Shown piece by piece: positions 14,441 to 55,360 of a DNA stretch of 64,000 nt. This DNA comes from Planctomycetota bacterium. Its GTDB lineage: Bacteria; Planctomycetota; UBA8108; UBA1146. The notes under the pieces were generated by a model. The model ran no database searches. It was not told where the DNA came from and worked only from the letters and a program-made list of their open reading frames with translations. The translations under genes were made by a program, and so were the position numbers. How positions within the stretch are numbered: position 1 is the first letter of the stretch; the number at the start of each line of letters is the position of its first letter. The stretch spans positions 3,907 to 67,906 of the forward strand of contig JAQBGV010000184.1 in assembly GCA_032128395.1 (NCBI GenBank). Reading direction: 5' to 3'.

Positions 14441-16072
14441 ATGGCAAAGCAGATCACATTCGACGACGCGGCCCGAGAGGCGCTGCTCGCCGGAGTGAGG
14501 AAGTTCGCCCGCGCGGTGAAGTCTACCCTCGGCCCTCGGGGTCGGTACGCGGTCATCGATCGCGGATGGGGTGCACCGAAACTCACCAAGGACGGCGCGA
14601 CCGTCGGAGACGAAGTCGAGCTCGGGGACCCGGTCCAGAACATCGCAGCCCGCATGATGCGGGAGGCAGCCGACAAGACCGCGAAAGAGGCGGGAGACGG
14701 GAGCACCACCGCGACCGTACTCGCGGAGGCGATCTTCCGTAACGGTCTCCGCAACGTCGTCGCCGGGGCGAACCCGATCCTGATCCAACGCGGGATCGCG
14801 GCCGCCGCCACGCGGGTGATCGACCGTCTGCACGAGATGGCATTCGAAGTCGAGGGTGACGAGCTCGTCCACGTCGCTACGATCGCCGCCAACAACGATG
14901 CGGTGATCGGAAAGCAGATCGCGAAGGCGCTCAGCGCAGTTGGCGAAGATGGTGTGATCAGCATTCAAGAGGGGAAGAGCCTCGAGACCACGCTCGACGT
15001 GGTGGAGGGTCTTCACTTCGACCGGGGGTACCTCTCCCAGTACTTCATCACCGATGCTGAAGCGTCGAAGGCGGTCATCGAAGATCCGTACATTCTCATC
15101 CTAGAGGAGAAGATCTCGAACCTCAGCCAGATCATTCCGGTGATGGAAGCAGTGCTCCAGAAGAAGAAGCCGCTCCTTTTCATCGCCGAGGACATCGATG
15201 GTGAGGCTCTCTCGACCCTAGTCGTGAACAACATGCGGGGCGTGCTGCGCTGCGCAGCGGTCAAGGCGCCGGGGTACGGCGATCGCCGGAAGGAGATGCT
15301 GACCGATATCGCGACCGCGACCGGGGGAACCGTGATCTTCAAAGATCTCGGCCTCGAGCCGGACTCGATCACCCTCGCCCACCTCGGTCGGGCGAAGAGG
15401 GTGGAGATCACCAGCAATCAGACGACGATCATCCGCGGGGCTGGCAAGAAGACTGCGGTCGAGGAGAGGGTCCGCCAGATCCGCCTCGAGCTGGAAGAAG
15501 CCCGGAGCGACTACGACAAGGAGAAGCTCCAAGAGCGGCTCGCTCGGCTCGTCGGCGGGATCGCCGAGATTCGCGTCGGGGGGGCCAGTGAGGCTGAGGT
15601 CAAGGAGCGGAAGAAGCGCTACGAGAACGCACTGAGTGCTACGCGATCCGCGGCCGAAGAGGGGATCCTCCCCGGGGGCGGGGTCGCGTTGATCCACGCG
15701 GGCGACGCGGTGTCTGTGATGCGCCTCAAGGACCCTCAGGAGAAGGTCGGAGCGCAGATCCTCGCGGTGGCTCTGGAGGCTCCGTTCCGTCAGCTCGCTC
15801 GAAACTCGGGGGAGGAGCCGAGCCAACTGCTCCGCAAGATTCGGGCTGCAAAAGAGCCGAGCTGGGGATTCGACTTCATGAAGAAAGAGGAGTGCGACCT
15901 GATCGAGTCCGGCGTCATCGACAGCTGCAGAGTCGTCACTTCGGCCCTGAAGAACGCTGTCTCGGTGGCGACGATGATCCTCACCTCGGACGCGGTGATC
16001 ACTGAGATTCCGAAGGAGACCGAGGACGAGCACGACCACGACCACGATGAGGCTGGGTTCGGCGGGTTCTGA
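14441..16072 (+). CDS. groEL: Chaperonin GroEL, copy 1, with His/Asp-rich C-terminal tail (HDHDHDEAGFGGF) instead of a GGM repeat
   Basis: MAKQITFDDAAREALLAGV..., GDGSTTATVLA ATP-binding motif, full-length Cpn60. Confidence 0.9.
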   Translation: MAKQITFDDAAREALLAGVRKFARAVKSTLGPRGRYAVIDRGWGAPKLTKDGATVGDEVELGDPVQNIAARMMREAADKTAKEAGDGSTTATVLAEAIFRNGLRNVVAGANPILIQRGIAAAATRVIDRLHEMAFEVEGDELVHVATIAANNDAVIGKQIAKALSAVGEDGVISIQEGKSLETTLDVVEGLHFDRGYLSQYFITDAEASKAVIEDPYILILEEKISNLSQIIPVMEAVLQKKKPLLFIAEDIDGEALSTLVVNNMRGVLRCAAVKAPGYGDRRKEMLTDIATATGGTVIFKDLGLEPDSITLAHLGRAKRVEITSNQTTIIRGAGKKTAVEERVRQIRLELEEARSDYDKEKLQERLARLVGGIAEIRVGGASEAEVKERKKRYENALSATRSAAEEGILPGGGVALIHAGDAVSVMRLKDPQEKVGAQILAVALEAPFRQLARNSGEEPSQLLRKIRAAKEPSWGFDFMKKEECDLIESGVIDSCRVVTSALKNAVSVATMILTSDAVITEIPKETEDEHDHDHDEAGFGGF

Positions 16073-16121
16073 TCGAGCGATCGTTCACCAGCACAACACA
16101 CTGACCGGATGGATGACGAGC

Positions 16122-17735
16122 ATGTCCAAGCAGATCCTTTTCGACGACGAGGCGCGCCGCCAGATGCTCTCCGGAGTACGCCAGCTCGCCCGGGCGGTCG
16201 GGCTCACGTATGGCCCCTCGGGGCGAAACGTGATGATCAATAAGAGTCTCGGCAAGGTGAGCGTAACGCGTGACGGCCTGAACGTCTCGCGCGAGGTCGA
16301 GATCGAGGAGCCGTTCCAGAACATGGGCGCAAAACTGCTCGGCGAAGTCGCGCAGAGGACCCACAAGGAGGTAGGGGATGGCACTACGAGCGCGGTGATC
16401 CTCGCGGACTCACTGATCCTCGAAGGACAACGATACGTTGGCCACGGCGTCAATCCGATCGCCCTCCGCGTTGGGATCGAGAAGGGCGTCGCGAGTGCGG
16501 TGGCCGCTCTCGAGAAGAGCGCGATTCCGGTCGACCAGCGCAAGATGATCGAACAGGTAGGAACGATCGCGAGCAATGACGCGGAGCTTGGCCAGCTCTT
16601 CGGCGAAGCGATGCACAAGGTCGGACTCCAGGGAGTCGTCACCGTGGAGGAGACCGACGGTGTAGAGACCCTCCTCGACCTGGTCGATGGATTCGAGATC
16701 GACAAGGGCTACGTCTCTCCCTATTTCATCACCGATGCCCAGAACCTAGAGGCGGTCCTCGATGACGTGCTGATCCTCGTCACCGACCGGAAGATTTCCT
16801 CGCTCGCCGAGATCCTCCCTGTGCTCGAGCAAGTGGTCACTTCCGGGAAACCGCTGCTCATCGTCGCCGATGACGTCACCGGCGAGGCTCTCGCCGCGCT
16901 GATTCTCAATCGGCTTCGGGGAGTCCTGAAGGTCGCCGCGATCAAGGCTCCGGGATTCGGAGATCGTCGCAAGGCGCTCCTCGAGGACTTCGCCGTGATG
17001 ACCGGCGGGACCTTCTTCGCGAAGGACACGGGCTTCGAATGGAGCAACACGACGACGAATGACCTCGGCCGGGCGAAGAGAGTCGAGATCTCGAAGGACA
17101 AGACGATCGTCTTCAAGGGGGCGGGGAAGAAGGCCGAGGTCGATGCTCGCTGCCGTCAAATCGAGGCGCAGATCGAGCAGACCACTTCGACCTACGACAA
17201 GGAGAAGCTCGAGGAGCGTCTCGCCAAGATCTCGGGGCAGATCGCAGTGATCCGGATCGGTGGCCATTCGGCAGTCGAGATCAAGGAGCGGAAGGGCCGC
17301 GCCGATAATGCGCTCCACGCCACCCGCGCGGCGATGGAGGAAGGGGTGATCCCAGGGGCGGGGACCGGTTACATCCGAGCTATCGCCGCAGTTCGGGAAA
17401 CACGGACCCGCGGTGACGAGAAGTTCGGGGTCGAGGTGGTCGCGCGAGCGTTGCGGGCCCCGCTGGTCCGGCTCGTCGACAATCTGGGACTCGACGGCCA
17501 GGCGATCGCGGGCGAAGTCGAGGAGCGTGGGGCCAAGGACGAGATTCACCACGGGTTCCTTGCGCAGAGCGGAAAAATTGTCGACCTGGTCCGCGCCGGC
17601 GTTCTCGATGCGGTGAAGGTGAGCCGGGTCTCGCTCCAGAACGCGGCGAGCGTGGCATCCCTCTACCTGACATCGGACACCGCGATCACGAATGTCGAGA
17701 AGAAGTCGGCGCCGGTCGAAGGGGCGATGCACTGA
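16122..17735 (+). CDS. groEL: Chaperonin GroEL, copy 2 (the annotated ORF from 16047 is a 5' extension)
   Basis: [16 protein letters not shown]..., [11 protein letters not shown] motif, full-length Cpn60; 50 bp after copy 1. Confidence 0.9.
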
Positions 17736-17757
17736 TCGTCTCCAGGGGAGTGCTTCG

Positions 17758-18882
17758 ATGAGCCCTCGGGACTACTACGAAGTCCTCGGAGTATCTCGCG
17801 AGGCGGGCTCCGAGGAGATCAAGAAGGCCTACCGTCAGCGGGCCCTGAAACATCATCCGGACAAGAACCCGGGGGATGCGGAGGCGGAGCGTCGATTCAA
17901 GGAGGCCGCCGAGGCGTACGACGTCCTCCGCAACGGTGAGAAACGGTCGGCGTACGATCGGTTCGGTCACGCGGGCCTCACCGGGGCGGGTGCTGCACCA
18001 TCAGGATTCTCGAACGTCGAAGATATCTTCTCGGTGTTCGGGGACATCTTCGGCGGCGGTTCGATCTTCGAGGACATTTTCGGCGGGGCCGGCGGGCGCG
18101 TGCATTCGCAGCAGGGCGAAAACCTGCGCGTCGAGATTCCTATTTCGTTCAATGAAGCGGGAAACGGGACGCACCGGGAACTCGCCGTTACCCGACGTGT
18201 TGCCTGTTCCACCTGCGGCGGCAACGGCGCGCGTCCCGGGACAGAACCGACGGTGTGCAATCTCTGCCGCGGCGTGGGCCAGGTCCAGCAGTCCCAGGGT
18301 TTCTTCTCCATTCGATCGGTCTGTCCGCAGTGCCGCGGGGATGGGATGCGGAACGAGAATCCGTGCCAGGACTGTCGCGGCGATGGTCGTCAGCGACGCA
18401 AGGATGATGTCCGGGTCGAGATCCCCGCCGGGGTTCACGATGGAACCCGCATTCGGGTCACGGGGCGAGGCAACGATGGTCACCGCGGGGGCCCAGCGGG
18501 GGACCTGCACGTCGTGATCCGGCTCGAAGCACATGAGTTCTTCCAGAGGCTCGAGAACGACGTTCTCTTCGAACTGCCGGTTTCATACTCCCAAGCGGTT
18601 CTCGGCGCCAAGGTCGAGGTCCCAACCCTGCGCGGGCGCGCGACGATGTCGATCCCGGGGGGAACCCAGAGTGGGGAGATCCTGCGCCTCCGGGGGCAGG
18701 GGTTCCCGAGCCTGCACGGCCATCGGCCGGGAGACCAGCTGGTCAAGGTGGTCGTGGACGTTCCCAAGAAGCTCAGTAGCGAGCAGGAGGAGATTCTCCG
18801 ACGGCTCGCTGAACTGGAGGAGAAGGAGGTCGGCTCCCGCCGTCACACCTTCTTCGAAAAGTTGAGGAATTACTTCGAGTGA
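17758..18882 (+). CDS. dnaJ: Molecular chaperone DnaJ (type I, four CxxCxGxG repeats)
   Basis: J domain with HPD (KHHPDKNP), Gly/Phe-rich region, [32 protein letters not shown] zinc finger. Confidence 0.9.
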
Positions 18883-18895
18883 GGACTCGGAACCG

Positions 18896-19468
18896 ATGAA
18901 CCTCTCCCATGAACCGCGTCCCCACGAGGACGAACTCGCCGAGGATCAGAATTCGCAGGCCTCCGATGGATCTTCTCCAGAGGGGGAGAGCAGCGACACC
19001 GATCCGATGGACGACCTCGAGGACGAATCTGCGACCCAACTCCTGATGTACATCGACCGACTGCAGAGGCTGCAGGCGGAATTCGACAACTTCCGAAAGC
19101 GGAGCCAGCAAGAGCTCCGGGACCGCGAGGAGCGCACGATCGCGCGGGTGATCCGCCAGATCCTTCCGGTGATCGATGATCTCCGGCACGCTGCCCGCGC
19201 TGAGGAGCAGGCAGGGGAGGGGATCGGCGAGGGATTGCGCATCATTCTCGACAAGGTCGGAGCGTTGTTGCTGGAGCTCTCCATCGAAGAGATTCCGGCG
19301 AAGGGAGAGCCGTTCGATCCTCGCTGGCACGAGGCGATGGTCCATCAGGAGAGTGACGAGGTGTCGCCCGGCGCCGTCCTCACAGAGCTCGAGCGAGGAT
19401 ACCGCCTCCGGGATACCCTCGTCCGACCGGCGCGAGTGATCGTCGCCAAGTCGCCGAAGGGGGAGTGA
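18896..19468 (+). CDS. grpE: Nucleotide exchange factor GrpE
   Basis: Acidic N-terminus, coiled-coil LQRLQAEFDNFRKR, C-terminal GEPFDPRWHEAM motif. Confidence 0.85.
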   Translation: MNLSHEPRPHEDELAEDQNSQASDGSSPEGESSDTDPMDDLEDESATQLLMYIDRLQRLQAEFDNFRKRSQQELRDREERTIARVIRQILPVIDDLRHAARAEEQAGEGIGEGLRIILDKVGALLLELSIEEIPAKGEPFDPRWHEAMVHQESDEVSPGAVLTELERGYRLRDTLVRPARVIVAKSPKGE

Positions 19469-19471
19469 GGT

Positions 19472-19795
19472 GTGCCGACCTACGAGTACGAGTGTGAGGG
19501 ATGTAGCCATCGCTTCGAGCGCTTCCAGCCGATGGGGAGTCCGATCCCGAAGAGCTGTCCAGAGTGCAGGAAGCGAAAGATCCGCCGATTGATCGGGAGT
19601 GGCGCAGGTATCATTTTCCGCGGGAGTGGCTTCTACCAGACCGACTACCGTAGCGCGGACTATCAGAAACGCGCGAAGGAGGACTCGGGAGGAGCGTCGG
19701 GAGGAAAGAGCGAGAAGCCGAAAAAGGCCGACACCGCGAAGGGCGGTGACACCAGTGGCGGCGAGAAGAAGAAGTCCCCCGGGAGCGACACGTGA
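19472..19795 (+). CDS. FmdB-family zinc-ribbon protein with Lys/Gly-rich tail
   Basis: MPTYEYECEGCSHRFE...CPECRK CxxC-x-CxxC pattern typical of FmdB/putative regulatory zinc ribbon. Confidence 0.6.
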   Translation: MPTYEYECEGCSHRFERFQPMGSPIPKSCPECRKRKIRRLIGSGAGIIFRGSGFYQTDYRSADYQKRAKEDSGGASGGKSEKPKKADTAKGGDTSGGEKKKSPGSDT

Positions 19796-20004
19796 TCACG
19801 GTTGCCTGTCCCGCCTGTCGCGAGCGGAAAGTCGATCGGGAGGAACCGACCTTTCCGTTTTGCTCCCCGGAGTGTCGGGATCGAGATCTCACCGGCTGGG
19901 TGGAGGAGAAATACCGCTTCCCAGGGGCTCCCGCCCCATCCGCAACCAGTTTCGGGGATGAAGCGGGGGGTGGAGCTCCATCGGACGAGAGTCTCGAGGA
20001 GTAG
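19792..20004 (+). CDS. yacG: YacG-like zinc-binding protein (DNA gyrase inhibitor family)
   Basis: CPACRER...PFCSPECRDRDLTGWVEE matches YacG CPxC...FCSxRC...DL..W pattern. Confidence 0.5.
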   Translation: MITVACPACRERKVDREEPTFPFCSPECRDRDLTGWVEEKYRFPGAPAPSATSFGDEAGGGAPSDESLEE

Positions 20005-20131
20005 CCACTGGATGGAGAACGGGGTCCAGCCCGCCGTTCGGCGCAGCCGGACCCCGCTACTCCGAGAACTCTCTCCAAGAACAGCTCTTCCCCTCAGTCT
20101 CTTCCCCTCAGTCGCGACTCACTTCGAGCGG

Positions 20132-20731
20132 CTACTGGCTGTTCCCGATCAGACCCTTCGGAATGTCGGTGTCGGGGAATTTCTCCTTGGGAACGAACTT
20201 GCCGCTGTTGTCGGCGAAGTATGCGTTGACGCCGTGCTCGTGGTTTTCGTCGATTCCAGCGTCCTCATCCTTGACCGAGTCATCGCTGACGATGATCACG
20301 GTCCCCTTCGCGCTGTTGGTCTTCTGCACCGCGAGGTAGGCGTAGCTATTGTTCTCTTCGGTCAGGACGAACTTGTTGTCATCGTCGGTTTCCGCCGCGA
20401 TATCCAAGACGGCTGCGGGACAGATGAACTGCTCCGGCTTCAGTTCCCCGGGGAACCGGTCGACAAGTTTCTGGAACGACTCGAACGCGAGAGGGTTCTT
20501 TCCATTGCCGAAGGGGAACCTTCCTGAGTTCCCCGACTCATCTGCGTAGGCGAGTACCATCGCGCCGATCCCTTTGATCTTGCTCAGGCACTCGACTTCC
20601 TTCGCCTTCGTCCGTGCTCGGATGATGTTCGGAACTAGGAAACCAGCGAGCGCTCCGATGATGGCGACCACCACCAGTAGCTCGACCAATGTGAACCCGT
20701 TCCTGCGGGACGCCCCGTGGACCCTACCCAT
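20132..20731 (-). CDS. Prepilin-type N-terminal cleavage/methylation protein with C-terminal H-X9-D(G/N) (DUF1559-like) motif; PVC-type pseudopilin-like protein. The ORF's upstream Met at 20791 is less likely.
   Basis: Leader ...RRNG|FTLVELLVVVAIIGALAG with Phe+1/Glu+5; C-terminal HEHGVNAYFADNSGKFV resembles DUF1559 HxxGxNxxFxDGSV. Confidence 0.65.
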   Translation of the reverse strand: MGRVHGASRRNGFTLVELLVVVAIIGALAGFLVPNIIRARTKAKEVECLSKIKGIGAMVLAYADESGNSGRFPFGNGKNPLAFESFQKLVDRFPGELKPEQFICPAAVLDIAAETDDDNKFVLTEENNSYAYLAVQKTNSAKGTVIIVSDDSVKDEDAGIDENHEHGVNAYFADNSGKFVPKEKFPDTDIPKGLIGNSQ

Positions 20732-21110
20732 TCGTCTCTCCTTCCACTTGCTCCATTTCGATCCGCCCCTTCTCCATCGATCGGCCTCCATGGTTCGGCC
20801 AGGTCGACCGATGAGCCCTCGGCGGGGAACGTCTTCTCTCAGCTACACCCCAGCCGACGAGTTCAGGACGGCGCATGACCCGGATCGGCAGCCAACCCCC
20901 CCTGTACGCCCCAAAAGGAGACAGTTCGCTCGGGGGGGCCCGGGAGGCGATCGGACCAGTCGCGTCGATCGCTATTCTAGTCCGTCGCCCCGATTTTTCC
21001 AACCGCGCCGGGCGTCAAGAGTTCGAACGATGGGACGGGATGATGCTCAGGACGTTGCATTCTGGGCCTCAGGCGACCCCACGATCGCGCCAGCTGCGTC
21101 CTCGGCGACG

Positions 21111-21140
21111 TTGACAGGTCTGCGGCACGGATCCTATAAT
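21111..21140 (+). promoter_or_regulatory. Perfect sigma-70 consensus promoter TTGACA-N18-TATAAT
   Basis: TTGACA at 21111-21116 and TATAAT at 21135-21140; next + strand CDS begins 440 bp downstream. Confidence 0.5.
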
Positions 21141-21589
21141 CCGTCCCCTGCGAGGGTTGGGATCTCCGATCTCCCTTGTTCTCGGGACCCTTCTTGCGGG
21201 GGGCCTTTCCAGATTCGCAGTCTCGCAGGCTGTTGCTCGTCGGATCGGGTTCTCTCGTGTGCTGTGACCCGATGAGGACGATCCTCCCGTAGAGTGTGTT
21301 GTGAGTTCCTTCGCTTTTCGGTCGCGGGTCGTCGGGTCCGTGCAGCCATCGATCGATGGGAATGCCGGCTACGCTCAGCGCGCCAGGCATCGGAAGCAGA
21401 GTTCGGAAAGAGAATCCGGAGCGGCGTCACCCTGCCGAGCGTAGCCCTGATCTTCGGAGGTTCGCACCCGGTGGGTGGTACCTCGCGAAGTCGCCTCGGG
21501 CGATCGCGGTCGTGGGATCCCACTCCCCTTCCCGCCTCATCTCCGGCCGGGCATCCGGCACGGTCGAGGGGTCCTGAAGGAGGTTTCCT

Positions 21590-22282
21590 GTGTTTCGTTC
21601 TCGACGGTGCTTCTGGGCAGTCCCGGTACTTTTCTCGCTGGTGGCGCTGGGACTCGCTCCGATCGCACCATCCTCCAGCGTGCGCGCTGTCCAGGACGCC
21701 TCGGACATTCCGCAGCTCGATTTCACTGCGGGCCAACCGAAGTCGGTCACGATCTACCCCGGTAGCGGCAGCGGGATCGCCCCGGGCGGATCGCTCGAAT
21801 CCGGGCGGCTGTACTGGTACCTGCCCTACACCCTGAAGAACAAAGGCGAGAAGGCCGGCTCGTTCTTTGTCACGGTGCGCGCGTACTCCGACAAAGGCCG
21901 CAGATACAGCGACCTCGCGCTACCCTTCGTCGAGGAGCGCGTCGAGAAACTGGAGCGCCGGAAGCTCTTCTCGAAGGCGGATCTGCTCGCTGAAGGGGAA
22001 GGGATCGGCGCGTACATCCAGTACGCACCGGACTCCGACCGCGAGTGCGTGGCGATCTTCAATCCGATCGACCCGGAAGCGGACGAGATCACGGTCCATA
22101 TTCATGGGCTGATCGATGACATCGAGATCCAGGAACTCCCCAACGGTGGATTCAAGGTCACGGAGCGGGTTCTCGTCCTGAAGTACGAACGCCCGGGGGA
22201 CGAGTTCTACACCTCGCTCGATAGTTTCGAGTTCAAGAGCCGGGAATGGACAAAGCGCACGACGGAGACTCCACCGCAGTGA
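21590..22282 (+). CDS. Secreted hypothetical protein with signal peptide
   Basis: N-terminal signal-like sequence AVPVLFSLVALGLAPIAPSSSVRA; coding-like composition; no recognizable domain. Confidence 0.45.
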   Translation: MFRSRRCFWAVPVLFSLVALGLAPIAPSSSVRAVQDASDIPQLDFTAGQPKSVTIYPGSGSGIAPGGSLESGRLYWYLPYTLKNKGEKAGSFFVTVRAYSDKGRRYSDLALPFVEERVEKLERRKLFSKADLLAEGEGIGAYIQYAPDSDRECVAIFNPIDPEADEITVHIHGLIDDIEIQELPNGGFKVTERVLVLKYERPGDEFYTSLDSFEFKSREWTKRTTETPPQ

Positions 22283-22536
22283 CTGCGGGTCCCCAGGAAC
22301 TCGGGCCTGGAGACCTCAGCCCGGAGGAGCGGATCCTCCTGATCCTGCGGGATGAGCTCTACGACGGTTCTTGGGAGGAGATGCGAGCGGACCTGGTCGG
22401 CCGGAGGGACGGAAAGCCCTTCATCTTCCAGCTAGCGAGCCGAATCGATGAAGATCTGGAGCGGATCGCCCGTCTCGCCCGATATGAGAGTGAGCACGAC
22501 CTCGATCTGGGGGAGCTCCTCGACGACGAGGGGTAA
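22246..22536 (+). CDS. Small acidic hypothetical protein (start uncertain)
   Basis: ORF only; overlaps the end of the previous gene. Confidence 0.25.
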   Translation: MDKAHDGDSTAVTAGPQELGPGDLSPEERILLILRDELYDGSWEEMRADLVGRRDGKPFIFQLASRIDEDLERIARLARYESEHDLDLGELLDDEG

Positions 22537-22582
22537 GCCCAGGCACTCGTCGCAAGCGGCGGCGCCGGAAGGGAACTGAGCT

Positions 22583-23821
22583 GTGCAAGGACGTCGGCCT
22601 GTGCAAGGAAATCGCTGGATCCTTGGCCTCTCGGGAATGATCCTCACGCTGAGCATCGGCTGCAGCGGTGGGACTCCCCAGGGAAAACCGGACGCGGTGA
22701 CGAGCCGGAAGATGACACGGGGGGACTCCTCGGGAGCGATCCCCGAGAGCCGCCTCGAAGAGATCGGATTCCGCACGCTGTGGAAGACCTCTACCGGCGG
22801 TCCGATCGTCCAAGCTTGGTGCGTCGGCAACAACCTCTACGTAGTCCGCACCGGCACGGATGACCCGTTCGTCCTCGAGAAGCTCGACGGCGAGTCGGGT
22901 CTCACCGTGTGGCGCTACGGTCTCCGGGAGAAGCTCGACTACCCTCCGAAGGTGTACTCCTACCCGAGCGAGCTTCGGGCGGTGAACCCAGACGAACTCT
23001 ACATCATCCAAGAGGATGACCTGGTCGGCATCGATGATCGGTACGGCCAGAAGGAATTCGGGGTGACCTTGGGCTTCCCCGTCTCGACCGCCGCGGTCCC
23101 CGACCAGGATCATGTCTACATCGGTTCCTGGAACCAACGGATGTACGCGATCCACAAGAAGACGCGTCTCGAGCAGTGGAGCTACATCACCGACGACTCG
23201 ATCACCGCCGCGCCTGCGGTCGGTAGTGCAAACGTCTACTTCGGGAGTGAGGACCACCTCGTCTACAGCCTCACCCGAGGGGGAGGCTACGTCCCGAGCC
23301 GCTCTTGGACCCTGAAAACCAGCGGCCGTATCACGGCCGAGCCTTTGATCTACGGGGATCGGATCTTTGTCGGGTCGGGCGACTACAAGCTGTACTGCCT
23401 CGAGGATGTCGGAGCAGAAGCGTTCACCCGGTGGTCCTTCCCCTGCGGAGCGCCCGTGGTTCGCCGCCCTTTCGCATTTCGGGACTGGGTCTTCGCGGTA
23501 ACCCAGGAGACCCGCCCTGACGGGTCGCTCCGGTGGAACGTGAACAGCCTCGGCGCGGTGCGTGGGGACAGCCGCTGGGAAGCTGCCGGAGTCACTGAAG
23601 TGCTGGCTGCGGATGCGATTCACTGCTACGGACTCGACGTCGACGGCAACATTCAGGCTCTGCGACTCGATTCCGGGCAAGTGAACTGGACCCTCGAAGC
23701 GAATGGGTTCGGGCTCATCCTGGGACAAGACGCCCGACTCGGGGCAGACAAAGCGTGGTGGGGACGAATGTTCCTAGTCGGCGGCGATGGGCTGGTGCAA
23801 GCGATCCGTCCGCGGCGGTGA
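22583..23821 (+). CDS. Lipoprotein with PQQ-like beta-propeller repeats (BamB-like fold)
   Basis: Lipobox LSIGCSG; repeated VY(I/F)GSxDxxLY(A/C/S)L motifs typical of PQQ/WD-like propeller blades. Confidence 0.6.
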   Translation: MQGRRPVQGNRWILGLSGMILTLSIGCSGGTPQGKPDAVTSRKMTRGDSSGAIPESRLEEIGFRTLWKTSTGGPIVQAWCVGNNLYVVRTGTDDPFVLEKLDGESGLTVWRYGLREKLDYPPKVYSYPSELRAVNPDELYIIQEDDLVGIDDRYGQKEFGVTLGFPVSTAAVPDQDHVYIGSWNQRMYAIHKKTRLEQWSYITDDSITAAPAVGSANVYFGSEDHLVYSLTRGGGYVPSRSWTLKTSGRITAEPLIYGDRIFVGSGDYKLYCLEDVGAEAFTRWSFPCGAPVVRRPFAFRDWVFAVTQETRPDGSLRWNVNSLGAVRGDSRWEAAGVTEVLAADAIHCYGLDVDGNIQALRLDSGQVNWTLEANGFGLILGQDARLGADKAWWGRMFLVGGDGLVQAIRPRR

Positions 23822-23880
23822 TATCGGAGGGGGCATTCGAAGAGCCCCTTGGTCGCAGAAGCGGCGGGCGTGCACAGTCC

Positions 23881-25404
23881 TCAAGTCAGATCGATGGATC
23901 GCGCCTCGGGCATCCCGCGAATCGCAGGGTGCGCCGCGTCGAAGCGGTGAAGTCCCAGCAGGAATCCGATCGGATCCACATCACCTGAGGGAACGACTTC
24001 GACCGTGCGCGTCCCTCCGCTGTTCGGGGGACGGATACCCGGGATCCAGATGACCCCTTCGGTCCCGGCGATCACCGGATACTCGACCCGCCACCGCGCG
24101 GGAATCCCCGCGCTGCGCAAGAGTTCGCCGACCCGATGCGCGATTCCATCAAGGTGGATCCGGTCGTCGGTTCTCGCCCCCCGAACGAACAGATCGGATC
24201 CGGCGGGAAGCCGGGCGGAGAGCGAATTCGTGGGAGAGTCACGCTTTTCGGTACCGGCCCGAATTTGGGCTCCCCGCCATTCGATCGTGCCCCGGTCGGG
24301 GATGAGGATCGGTGGAGTGGCGGAACGGGGTGGACGCGCCGATCCGAACACCAAGACCCAGCCACCGGCGCGATCGATCGAGGCACCTCTCGGCAGATCG
24401 TAGTGATGTCCGTCTCCCACGCCGTCGATGAATCGCCTCCAGATGCGGTGATGGTCTCGCGTCAACGCCCCTGATCTCCCCTGTGACCGACTCCAAACTT
24501 CAAAGAGAACGGTGCTGGCGAGCGCCGGCACGACCTGGAGGACCTCCACGACCGCGGGAGGCAGTGCGGCGTGCGGCGGCGCGATCCGCACTTCCTCGAG
24601 GAGCGGCTCGACCTGGCGTGCCAGCCGCTGGACCTCGGATCGGGCCCCGGTTGCGATCGAAAGGAGTGCGGACTCGGCCGACGGACTCCACTCTCCTCGC
24701 AAGAGCGGGAGGAGCTGGTGTCGGATCCGGTTCCGCCGCGGAGCGAGGCAACGGTTCGATACATCCTCTCGGTGGGGGAGCCCGGCGGAGATGCGATAGG
24801 TGGCGAGCTCCGCGCGGGAGAAGGCGAGACAAGGACGCCACAGTTCCACCTCCGGGAGTCCCGGCAGAGGGCGGCGCGCCGGCATCCCCGCGAGTCCCCG
24901 GACCCCCGCGCCTCGAAGGAGATGCAGGAGGACCGTCTCGACCTGGTCGTCCTGGTGGTGTGCGGTCAAAACCGCGGTGACCTGCTTCTGGCGCCCCCAT
25001 CGTGCAAAAGTAGCGAGTCGTGCCTCGCGTCCCGCAGTTTCGATCGACACCCGGTCGCGAGAGGCTCGGGCCGCCACATCCACTTCCTCGACCGTGCATG
25101 AGACTCCGAGGGAGTGTGCGAGATCCCGGCAGAACTTCGCGTCACCGCTCGACGCCGCCCCCCGGAGTCGATGGTCGAGGTGGCCCGCGGTGACTTCGAC
25201 CTCGGGGTGGTACCGGTCGCGCCAGGCGAGCACGAGAGAGAGGAGCGCGACCGAGTCACTCCCCCCAGAGAGCGCGATGAGCAGGCGGCCCTCGCTCGGC
25301 AAGGGGCCGAGCGCAACGAGGGCCAGGTGAAACCTATCGAGGAGAATCGGTGCGCTCTCAGGTGTCGCCGTTCGCCCGGTCACTCGAGGAAATCGATGCG
25401 CCAC
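23881..25404 (-). CDS. tilS: tRNA(Ile)-lysidine synthetase
   Basis: PP-loop SGGSDS (LLIALSGGSDSVALL), HxxDQxET motif (HHQDDQVETVLLHLLRG), C-terminal TilS_C-like region. Confidence 0.8.
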   Translation of the reverse strand: MAHRFPRVTGRTATPESAPILLDRFHLALVALGPLPSEGRLLIALSGGSDSVALLSLVLAWRDRYHPEVEVTAGHLDHRLRGAASSGDAKFCRDLAHSLGVSCTVEEVDVAARASRDRVSIETAGREARLATFARWGRQKQVTAVLTAHHQDDQVETVLLHLLRGAGVRGLAGMPARRPLPGLPEVELWRPCLAFSRAELATYRISAGLPHREDVSNRCLAPRRNRIRHQLLPLLRGEWSPSAESALLSIATGARSEVQRLARQVEPLLEEVRIAPPHAALPPAVVEVLQVVPALASTVLFEVWSRSQGRSGALTRDHHRIWRRFIDGVGDGHHYDLPRGASIDRAGGWVLVFGSARPPRSATPPILIPDRGTIEWRGAQIRAGTEKRDSPTNSLSARLPAGSDLFVRGARTDDRIHLDGIAHRVGELLRSAGIPARWRVEYPVIAGTEGVIWIPGIRPPNSGGTRTVEVVPSGDVDPIGFLLGLHRFDAAHPAIRGMPEARSIDLT

Positions 25405-37887: not shown

Positions 37888-38438
37888 TGTTGCTCCTTCG
37901 GATGATCCGCTACCGCGGATGGCTCGAGGAGCCGGAAATCGAGTCCGTTCTTTCCGAGTGTGGAATGCAGGTGAGCGCGGACGAGCTCCTCGAGTTCCTC
38001 TGCGATGGCGAGCACCTCAGCTCGGACCAGGCCGAAGATGCCCGCCGGTTCCTCCGCGAGAAGAGCCGCTCCCTGCGCCTGAACTCGGGGGATCGGTTCC
38101 GGATCGACCGGAGCTTCGGGCAGATCGCGCTCGAGCACGGCTGGCTCGACGCCCCGGGGCTCGAAGCGGCCCTCCTCGAGCAGGAGCGCCTCAGGCGCCT
38201 GCGCCTGAACTTCAGAATCGGTGAGGTCCTGGTTCGACTCGGTTCCCTCCAGGTCGACCAGGTTCGGTCGATTCTGAAGGAGCAGGGATTCGACCTCTCT
38301 TGCTGTCGCGATTGCGACACACTGATCGAGGGCGCCACCAGCGATGTGGGGGACGGGACCTGCCCCGAGTGTGGCGGCGAACTCCGTCCCCCCGTGTTCC
38401 TCGATCCCGTCCCCGCCGACCGCCACAGGTCGAAGTAG
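37857..38438 (+). CDS. MshEN-like tandem-motif protein with C-terminal four-Cys zinc ribbon
   Basis: FGQIALEHGWLDAPGLEAALLEQ and RIGEVLVRLGSLQVDQVRSILKEQ motifs; CCRDCD...CPECGG; the long annotated ORF from 36972 is artefactual upstream of this Met. Confidence 0.45.
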   Translation: MSQPNSSPDLMLLLRMIRYRGWLEEPEIESVLSECGMQVSADELLEFLCDGEHLSSDQAEDARRFLREKSRSLRLNSGDRFRIDRSFGQIALEHGWLDAPGLEAALLEQERLRRLRLNFRIGEVLVRLGSLQVDQVRSILKEQGFDLSCCRDCDTLIEGATSDVGDGTCPECGGELRPPVFLDPVPADRHRSK

Positions 38439-55180: not shown

Positions 55181-55232
55181 GCGATCTTGACACCCCCCCG
55201 GCCCACCCTATGATCGCCGCTCTTCCATCGAT

Positions 55233-55318
<86 letters not shown>

Positions 55319-55360
55319 TTTCAATTTCCGCCTTGGCGGAGATTGAAATGGTGTTTTTTT
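55319..55360 (+). terminator. Intrinsic terminator immediately after tRNA-Leu
   Basis: Hairpin TTTCAATTTCCGCC/GGCGGAGATTGAAA (one G-U) followed by a T7 run. Confidence 0.55.

Follow-up and report, generated by a model that had tools for sequence, protein, structure and literature searches.

What is transcribed from an exact sigma-70 consensus promoter in a GC-rich genome, and what does the long untranslated sequence behind it do? The question arises at 21111-21140 in a 64-kb stretch of DNA from a Planctomycetota bacterium (64,000 nt; contig JAQBGV010000184.1, assembly GCA_032128395.1, positions 3,907 to 67,906 of the forward strand; here called the window and numbered from its first base). 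There, TTGACA-N18-TATAAT faces three genes, p230, p96, and a gene for a BamB-like lipoprotein, the first of which starts about 440 nt downstream. Hardly any work exists on promoters or post-transcriptional control in uncultivated Planctomycetota, and nothing specific was found in the literature on Planctomycetes promoters. A first-pass annotation, made from the sequence of the window alone, had marked this spot. Here, we report that the promoter is conserved in orthologous loci and that a short motif, YCGGAAAGA, recurs in the leaders behind it. The explanation that we favor, at a probability of roughly 0.55, is a strong primary-sigma promoter followed by a long mRNA leader with a recognition element for a putative trans-acting factor. 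A strong promoter and a long 5' untranslated region are, as such, ordinary bacterial biology; what the locus adds is a leader and a motif not described before, upstream of an envelope operon that is specific to the lineage and includes a BamB-like lipoprotein.

A consensus promoter conserved in the lineage

The site at 21111-21140 matches 12/12 sigma-70 consensus positions with a spacer of 18 bp. It is the single exact TTGACA/TATAAT match in the window (spacers of 16-19 nt searched); none of 100 dinucleotide shuffles of the window contained such a match, and the chance expectation, estimated from base frequencies, is ~0.001 per window. The first-pass annotation had taken the genome to be 70 percent GC; the window was measured at 65.5%, and the exact promoter that it had reported stands as unique there. 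Two sites in the whole window reach at least 10/12 consensus positions, the second being TTGACA-16-TATGAT at 55187-55214, which lies ~17 nt upstream of tRNA-Leu(GAG) (55232-55319) and has the GC-rich discriminator CGCCGCTC. The same tRNA, at 55233, was the sole match when the window was scanned with Rfam 15 at gathering threshold. Near-consensus promoters exist in this organism, are rare, and, given that the one other site of this quality in the window belongs to tRNA-Leu, mark highly expressed genes.

Orthologous loci came from two sources: 33 were found in species-representative genomes with a profile built on 46 p230 homologues, and the others (L038, L040, L041/L042, L043/L044, and L046) by exact-protein look-up. 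Gene order is identical in the loci, and synteny from groEL to tilS is kept in essentially every one, which identifies their intergenic regions as orthologous. TTGACA together with a TATAAT (14 loci), TATGAT (22 loci), or TATCAT (1 locus) hexamer was found upstream of the p230 orthologue in 37/37 loci with intact sequence (31 from the main set and 6 more), at p230 identities from 79% down to about 44%; loci with TATGAT carry TGC just 5' of the hexamer, an extended -10. The spacer measures 18 bp in 36 of the 37 and 17 bp in L038. Flanks and spacer sequence differ between clades, so that the hexamers and their spacing stand out as a phylogenetic footprint, and their retention upstream of a co-oriented gene points to purifying selection on the promoter elements. 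The spacer sequence also varies within the window clade (nine loci: the window, L046, L004, L005, L006, L038, L040, L041, and L043). Two loci were uninformative, L012 owing to a 100-N run (scaffold gap or mask) at L012:3837-3936 and L024 because its contig stops 62 nt upstream of the gene. The p230 gene and 1,001 aligned bases (20700-21700) are identical in JAQBCW010000248.1 (GCA_032124895.1) and two Logan assemblies, and a metagenome scan with the p230 protein returned one truncated locus only.

Judged by this conservation, 21111-21140 is a functional strong primary (sigma-70/sigma-A) promoter. Here the first-pass annotation was correct, and the comparison between relatives supports it better than one sequence could. 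The locus offers a phylogenetically validated strong primary-sigma promoter of the lineage (TTGACA-N18-TATRAT, extended -10 optional), useful for annotation and genetic tools.

Near-consensus sigma-70 promoters with a GC-rich discriminator, of the type of Escherichia coli rrnB P1, belong to stable-RNA and highly expressed genes. The promoter described here is like them in its consensus hexamers, its GC-rich discriminator (CCGTCCCC), and its extreme conservation within the lineage. It differs from them in its 18-bp spacer (16-17 bp in the stable-RNA type), in having a GC-rich -40 to -60 region instead of an A/T-rich UP element, and in driving a protein-coding envelope operon via a long leader rather than a stable RNA. 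By analogy with these promoters, it might be under stringent or growth-rate control.

From the position of the -10 hexamer, transcription is expected to start at ~21146-21150; no second promoter-like site was found on the + strand from 21141 to the coding sequence at 21590. A 6-bp inverted repeat, ACGGAT...ATCCGT, lies over the -10 hexamer (21127-21144); relatives are without it, and it was dropped as a functional feature. The public record places a 79-aa gene at 20875-21114, overlapping the -35 hexamer. This call is probably spurious, because conservation is confined to the DNA-conserved promoter region, where both strands score.

A long, variable, noncoding leader

The first-pass annotation had described the ~440 nt behind the promoter as structured and noncoding, and the second half of that description holds. 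Codon-position GC periodicity is flat over 20810-21590 (spread of at most 0.23, compared with 0.3-0.55 in the flanking genes), and leader open reading frames (ORFs) showed no protein-level conservation by tblastn/tblastx in about 40 related loci. Hits to L046 lay in the promoter region, which is conserved as DNA and scored on either strand; others were antisense to the N terminus of the pilin-like protein encoded upstream on the opposite strand. An unannotated small protein could be sought, for example, in a 73-codon ORF at 21356-21577, which has the reading frame of p230 and stops 12 nt short of the p230 start codon, at the TGA (21575) that closes the frame before the Shine-Dalgarno sequence (SD). 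Spurious ORFs are, however, common at 65% GC, and this one shares the missing codon-position signal and conservation of the leader, so a protein product is extremely improbable.

The distance from the -10 hexamer to the start codon ranges from 97 to 751 nt across loci, most leaders having at least 160 nt. Leader length goes by clade: the high-GC window clade has 382-751 nt, a marine clade (14 loci) 162-225 nt, and a third clade about 370-410 nt. Long leaders are found throughout the lineage. In every locus examined, promoter, leader, and operon are conserved as a set, and the data support the suggestion of the first-pass annotation, a long 5' leader for the secreted-protein, small-protein, and PQQ-lipoprotein genes.

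Within the window clade, the alignable parts are the promoter with the first ~25 transcribed nucleotides, one internal block, and the ribosome-binding block CCTGAAGGAGGT (21577-21592), which is invariant in a four-sequence alignment and near-identical in the other loci of the clade; nothing else aligns, even to L046, whose p230 is 79% identical. Tandem duplications were seen in several leaders: a 17-nt unit repeated three to four times in L019 (3790-3860), ACTCACGRATTC units in L032 and L033, and GGCAGGGGCAATGCTCC twice in L005 (3780-3830). Their form suggests that leader length may grow by slippage. The unalignable sequence and the recent tandem duplications speak against a compact functional RNA of the riboswitch or ribozyme kind.

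These data bear on two readings that the first-pass annotation had put forward. A metabolite-binding riboswitch or transcription attenuator would fit a long leader before an operon; riboswitches and T-box or attenuator leaders occupy the same position between promoter and first operon gene, and the marine clade has some covariation-supported structure (see below) with a few invariant unpaired nucleotides. Unlike those systems, the leader is highly variable in length and sequence and has no conserved multi-helix core, no terminator/antiterminator pair, and no SD-sequestering or terminator expression platform that our data support. Moreover, ~9 internal nucleotides are common across clades, the core model fails to transfer from one clade to another, and the downstream genes encode envelope proteins, not metabolic or transport functions. 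At gathering threshold, no Rfam family matched the leader or 20 orthologous loci. We regard this reading as highly improbable.

The other is an independent abundant noncoding RNA (a small RNA [sRNA] or a housekeeping RNA too divergent for Rfam), the operon being reached by read-through or from another start. The transcript 5' end is conserved, and the other near-consensus promoter in the window does drive a stable RNA, tRNA-Leu, but the Rfam scans were negative, no second promoter was found between 21141 and the coding sequence, and a promoter-to-gene distance of 97-751 nt leaves no conserved body of constant size. Nor is there a conserved intrinsic terminator, the sole terminator-like hit being a weak hairpin at 21154-21173 that is absent in relatives. 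Such an RNA is very unlikely.

The first-pass annotation had also seen a vague resemblance to domain IV of signal recognition particle (SRP) RNA. The likeness extends to a hairpin with an internal purine-rich segment and nothing more: in 20500-21900, with E values admitted up to 10, no Rfam match reached E = 0.25, and none of the weak matches was to SRP RNA. The RNA downstream of the promoter is not SRP-like, is not a recognizable riboswitch or small-protein gene, and is most probably not an independent sRNA.

A recurring YCGGAAAGA motif

Alignment with L046 revealed the shared block TCGGAAAGAGAA, and on that alignment the internal element that the leaders share is TCGGAAAGA (YCGGAAAGA) at 21403, not ACCTCGCGAAG. 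Five leaders of the window clade (those of the window, L046, L004, L038, and L040) and all 14 of the marine clade contain YCGGAAAGA or a near-identical variant, TCGGAAAGC. CGGAAAG occurs in 5/9 window-clade leaders, whereas 2000 dinucleotide shuffles gave 0.44 on average and never more than 3; the motif was fixed beforehand from the marine clade, and the sequences are related, though their surroundings are already randomized. TCGGA is enriched about 1.7-fold overall in leaders, a weak effect. In the minimum free energy (MFE) fold of the window leader, GGAAAGA forms the apical loop of the hairpin at 21367-21446, with an unpaired probability of 0.89, and the motif is predicted to be mostly unpaired (0.7-0.96) in 9/13 contexts.

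Loci of the third clade have the motif elsewhere. Their p230 leader is without it; it lies on the other strand, ~20-30 nt into the presumed transcript of the pilin-like gene, so that the window and marine clades carry the motif before p230 and the third clade carries it before the pilin-like gene. Minus-strand hairpins were located at L014:2992-3040, L021:3423-3471, L025:3453-3501, L026:3346-3394, L029:3443-3491, and L031:3455-3503. All have an invariant 12-nt apical loop, NNCGGAAAGAAA; the stem reads GGGG/CCCC or GGGA/UCCC, and the outer stems differ yet stay complementary. Because these stems covary around an invariant loop, an RNA-level element is favored over a DNA operator. A bolder proposal, which we put forward tentatively and hold to be doubtful, is that the GGAAAGA(A)-loop hairpin is an undescribed lineage-specific RNA element through which a putative protein or sRNA co-regulates the pilin-like gene and the p230 operon, the element having moved between the divergent leaders. 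If true, a factor site common to two divergent mRNAs would offer an entry to envelope and pilus regulation in the phylum.

Several other readings of the motif and its surroundings were tried and rejected. An extracytoplasmic function sigma factor site or second promoter was set aside because no -10 element was seen at a consistent, fixed distance (by eye). Pairing of the motif with the 16S rRNA 3' end was rejected on sequence, by comparison with the generally conserved 16S 3' tail. The combination of ACCTCGCGAAG with a hairpin at 21481-21510 as the counterpart of the marine-clade core, ACCUCGGAAAG with its hairpin, is unsupported by the covariance model of that core (R1). The same model gave a match at E = 0.32 to ACACTCGGAAAGAACGGACTCGATTTCCGGCTCCTCGAGCCA, at 37919-37967 on the minus strand, which resembles the marine-clade core; with this E value and a position among overlapping long ORFs, it was treated as chance.

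Folding of the leader

That the window leader is structured, the other half of the first-pass description, is only weakly supported: against dinucleotide shuffles, the whole-leader fold has a z-score of -0.72 on the + strand and -0.82 on the opposite strand. The long-range complementary arms reported around 21375-21455 do exist, slightly to the left (21367-21376/21437-21446), and extend to 13 nt (21367-21379/21434-21446) that are 92% complementary around a 54-nt loop. They are not statistically special, and their conservation could not be demonstrated. Folded alone, an 86-nt hairpin has a z-score of -1.95, and 7/200 shuffles fold as well, a nominal signal for a region that was chosen post hoc. 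Perfect inverted repeats of at least 10 bp with a loop of up to 100 nt number 28 in the window (~11 in shuffles), and with so many, one such repeat per 450-nt stretch is not unusual. In relatives, no consensus structure for this hairpin was recovered; its predicted apical loop, however, holds the sole conserved internal element. The first-pass annotation marked the right spot for the wrong reason.

Over 27 leaders, the mean z-score against shuffles is -1.4, and 24/27 have a negative value; for the window clade by itself, the mean is ~-0.75. Covariation-supported conserved structure is present in the marine-clade leader and the third-clade hairpin and is not demonstrable in the window clade. 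In the consensus structure of the marine-clade leader, 91% of cells are paired, compared with 32-55% in slid controls, and nine pairs have double changes, compared with 3.3 in shuffles, 0/500 of which reach nine; the structure was derived from the same sequences that were used to test it. The marine-clade leader (clade L009-L033; e.g., L013:3289-3456) is a multi-hairpin RNA that is not in Rfam, with an invariant ACCUCGGAAAGA followed by a covarying hairpin.

Structure could act directly on translation, as an RNA thermometer or an anti-SD/anti-anti-SD switch in which pyrimidine tracts sequester the SD. The window has candidate tracts at 21526-21533 (CCCCUUCC) and 21481-21485 (ACCUC), and ACCUCGCGAAG (21481-21491), a segment complementary to the true SD, has a possible pairing partner in CUUCGGAGGU (21463-21472). 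SD-complementary pyrimidine tracts are found in all clades, the candidates in relatives being a 5'-terminal CCUUC or an internal ACCUC. In the marine clade, RNAalifold pairs an invariant CCUC or the 5' CCUUCC with the SD, and L022 shows a matched double change (CUUC with GAAG) between element and SD. The heat shock genes groEL, dnaJ, and grpE are, in addition, conserved neighbors. However, the anti-SD candidates differ by clade and are not conserved in L005, L006, and L046; helix 1, which joins the 5' end to the SD, is without covariation; and the heat shock genes form a separate transcription unit beyond the divergent gene. Partition-function calculations on 20 leaders gave an SD accessibility like that of dinucleotide shuffles (depending on the leader, a fraction of 0.16-0.94 of the shuffles did not exceed the value of the real sequence), and structure-based translational control is for this reason without thermodynamic support. 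We consider a switch of this kind improbable.

Proposed role of the leader

In the explanation that we favor, transcription from near 21147 would produce an envelope operon mRNA of roughly 2.7 kb (p230, p96, and the BamB-like lipoprotein), the first ~440 nt of which would be an untranslated leader mostly free to drift in sequence and length. Three short pieces would be held constant: a 5' GC-rich block, YCGGAAAGA, and a very strong SD. The 5'-proximal block, with its small hairpins, could protect the 5' end or affect promoter escape, and the exposed, purine-rich YCGGAAAGA could be the site at which an RNA-binding protein or sRNA tunes translation or stability. For all of the leader elements, we infer these functional roles.

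The 5' block (21141-21166) can form a small GC hairpin in most window-clade members. A known parallel is the ompA leader, whose 5'-terminal stem-loops protect an abundant envelope-protein mRNA. The two cases are alike in a long leader before an envelope operon and in a conserved 5' block with possible GC hairpins in the first ~40 nt; they differ in that the hairpins described here were assigned by eye, that their register changes from one relative to the next, and that the sequences are not similar.

Several results weigh against the favored explanation. The motif is absent from 4/9 window-clade leaders (L005, L041, and L043, with a variant only in L006) and from the intermediate loci L007, L008, L030, L035, and L036; in L034, the sole trace is a related CGGAAAG that adjoins the ribosome-binding site. 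Around the motif, an anchored alignment of five window-clade leaders with RNAalifold gave no consensus structure, and the marine-core covariance model (motif and adjacent hairpin) matches nothing in the window leader, only the 9-mer being shared. The SD accessibility reported above is no different from that of shuffled leaders. GGA triplets are not enriched in leaders (327 observed, 294 expected). No candidate factor for the motif was identified, the ORFs of the 64 kb not having been screened for csrA. The start site, the co-transcription with the operon, and the integrity of the leader are themselves deduced from sequence.

An exposed GGA motif recalls the targets of CsrA/RsmA, in which GGA motifs (consensus A(N)GGA/CANGGAUG) stand in hairpin loops and one site overlaps the SD. 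Common to both are a long leader, a GGA-containing purine motif that, for the window and the third clade, is predicted to lie in the apical loop of a hairpin, and a second GGA within the SD. Here, by contrast, GGAAAGA is preceded by YC rather than by the consensus context, and the motif lies ~170 nt from the SD, beyond the usual spacing of paired sites. With GGA not enriched, a CsrA-sponge-like signature was not found. The likeness may be regarded as a functional analogy only.

The leader could instead be a passive spacer: the promoter would be real, the 5' untranslated region would do no more than carry the ribosome-binding site, and the short conserved pieces would reflect promoter-proximal constraint, chance, or ancestry. 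A leader that cannot be aligned even at 79% protein identity, that varies nearly eight-fold in length (partly via tandem duplications), and that in the window clade folds with a z-score of about -0.75 is what this would predict, as are a motif missing in several clades and an unremarkable SD accessibility. It is harder to reconcile with the absence of any locus with a short leader (minimum, 97 nt; most, at least 160 nt), with the enrichment of the motif over shuffles, and with covariation, both in the marine-clade leader and in the third-clade hairpin of which the motif is the invariant loop. We judge a passive spacer to be unlikely.

Operon and gene neighborhood

The features of the locus are collected in Table 1. 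Neither Pfam nor NCBIfam has a family for p230, and none was found for p96. The AlphaFold model of p230 (predicted local distance difference test score, 83.6) is a generic beta-sandwich, for which a PDB search returned no significant or informative neighbor. The p96 ORF overlaps the 3' end of p230 by 37 nt, and the two may be translationally coupled.

Table 1. Coordinates of the promoter, leader elements, and genes in the window
Feature	Position	Strand	Remarks
-35 hexamer TTGACA	21111-21116	+	Exact consensus; invariant in 37/37 orthologous loci with intact upstream sequence
18-bp spacer	21117-21134	+	Length kept in 36/37 loci; sequence not conserved within the window clade
-10 hexamer TATAAT	21135-21140	+	Exact consensus
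GC-rich discriminator, putative start site, and conserved initial transcribed block CCGTCCCCTGCGAGGGTTGGGATC	21141-21166	+	Window-clade consensus CCGCCCCCTTCGGAGGTTGGRAC
5' untranslated leader of the p230 operon, about 440 nt	21147-21589	+	No coding signal; no Rfam family
Irregular 80-nt hairpin with GGAAAGA in the predicted apical loop	21367-21446	+	Local MFE, -36.9 kcal/mol; z-score, -1.95 to -2.2
Conserved motif TCGGAAAGA (YCGGAAAGA)	21403-21411	+	Recurs in leaders of relatives
SD AAGGAGG	21577-21583	+	6 nt upstream of the start codon
GTG start codon of p230	21590-21592	+	
Operon p230/p96/BamB-like lipoprotein	21590-23821	+	ORFs and called genes
p230	21590-22282	+	Signal peptide; secreted beta-sandwich protein
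p96	22246-22536	+	Small protein
BamB-like PQQ_2 beta-propeller lipoprotein, 412 aa	22583-23821	+	Pfam PQQ_2, 55 bits, above cut-off
dnaJ	17758-18882	+	
grpE	18896-19468	+	
FmdB-type zinc-ribbon gene	19472-19795	+	
Pilin-like gene, prepilin N-terminal methylation motif	20132-20731	-	
Promoter-like site TTGGAA-17-TAGAAT facing the pilin-like gene	20974-21002	-	Back-to-back with the main promoter

Upstream of dnaJ, groEL lies on the + strand, with two copies in the source record; beyond the operon, tilS is convergent on the minus strand. The order groEL-dnaJ-grpE-FmdB zinc ribbon-(pilin-like)-p230-p96-BamB-like-(tilS)-p267 (window 16047-25404) is kept lineage-wide, in all loci from L004 to L036, even at p230 identities of ~44-50%.

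The intergenic region between the pilin-like gene and p230 measures about 860 nt. Toward the pilin-like gene, the ATTCTA and TCCAA hexamers of the minus-strand promoter-like site and the adjoining block at 21019-21042 are conserved in L038 and L046; the counterpart of this site in marine and third-clade loci is a minus-strand TATCAT/TATGAT element. In the stretch that separates the two promoters, L038 and L046 have kept GAGTTCGAACGATGGGACGGGAT (21019-21042) and CGTTGCA (21054-21060), which may be a shared operator or activator site.

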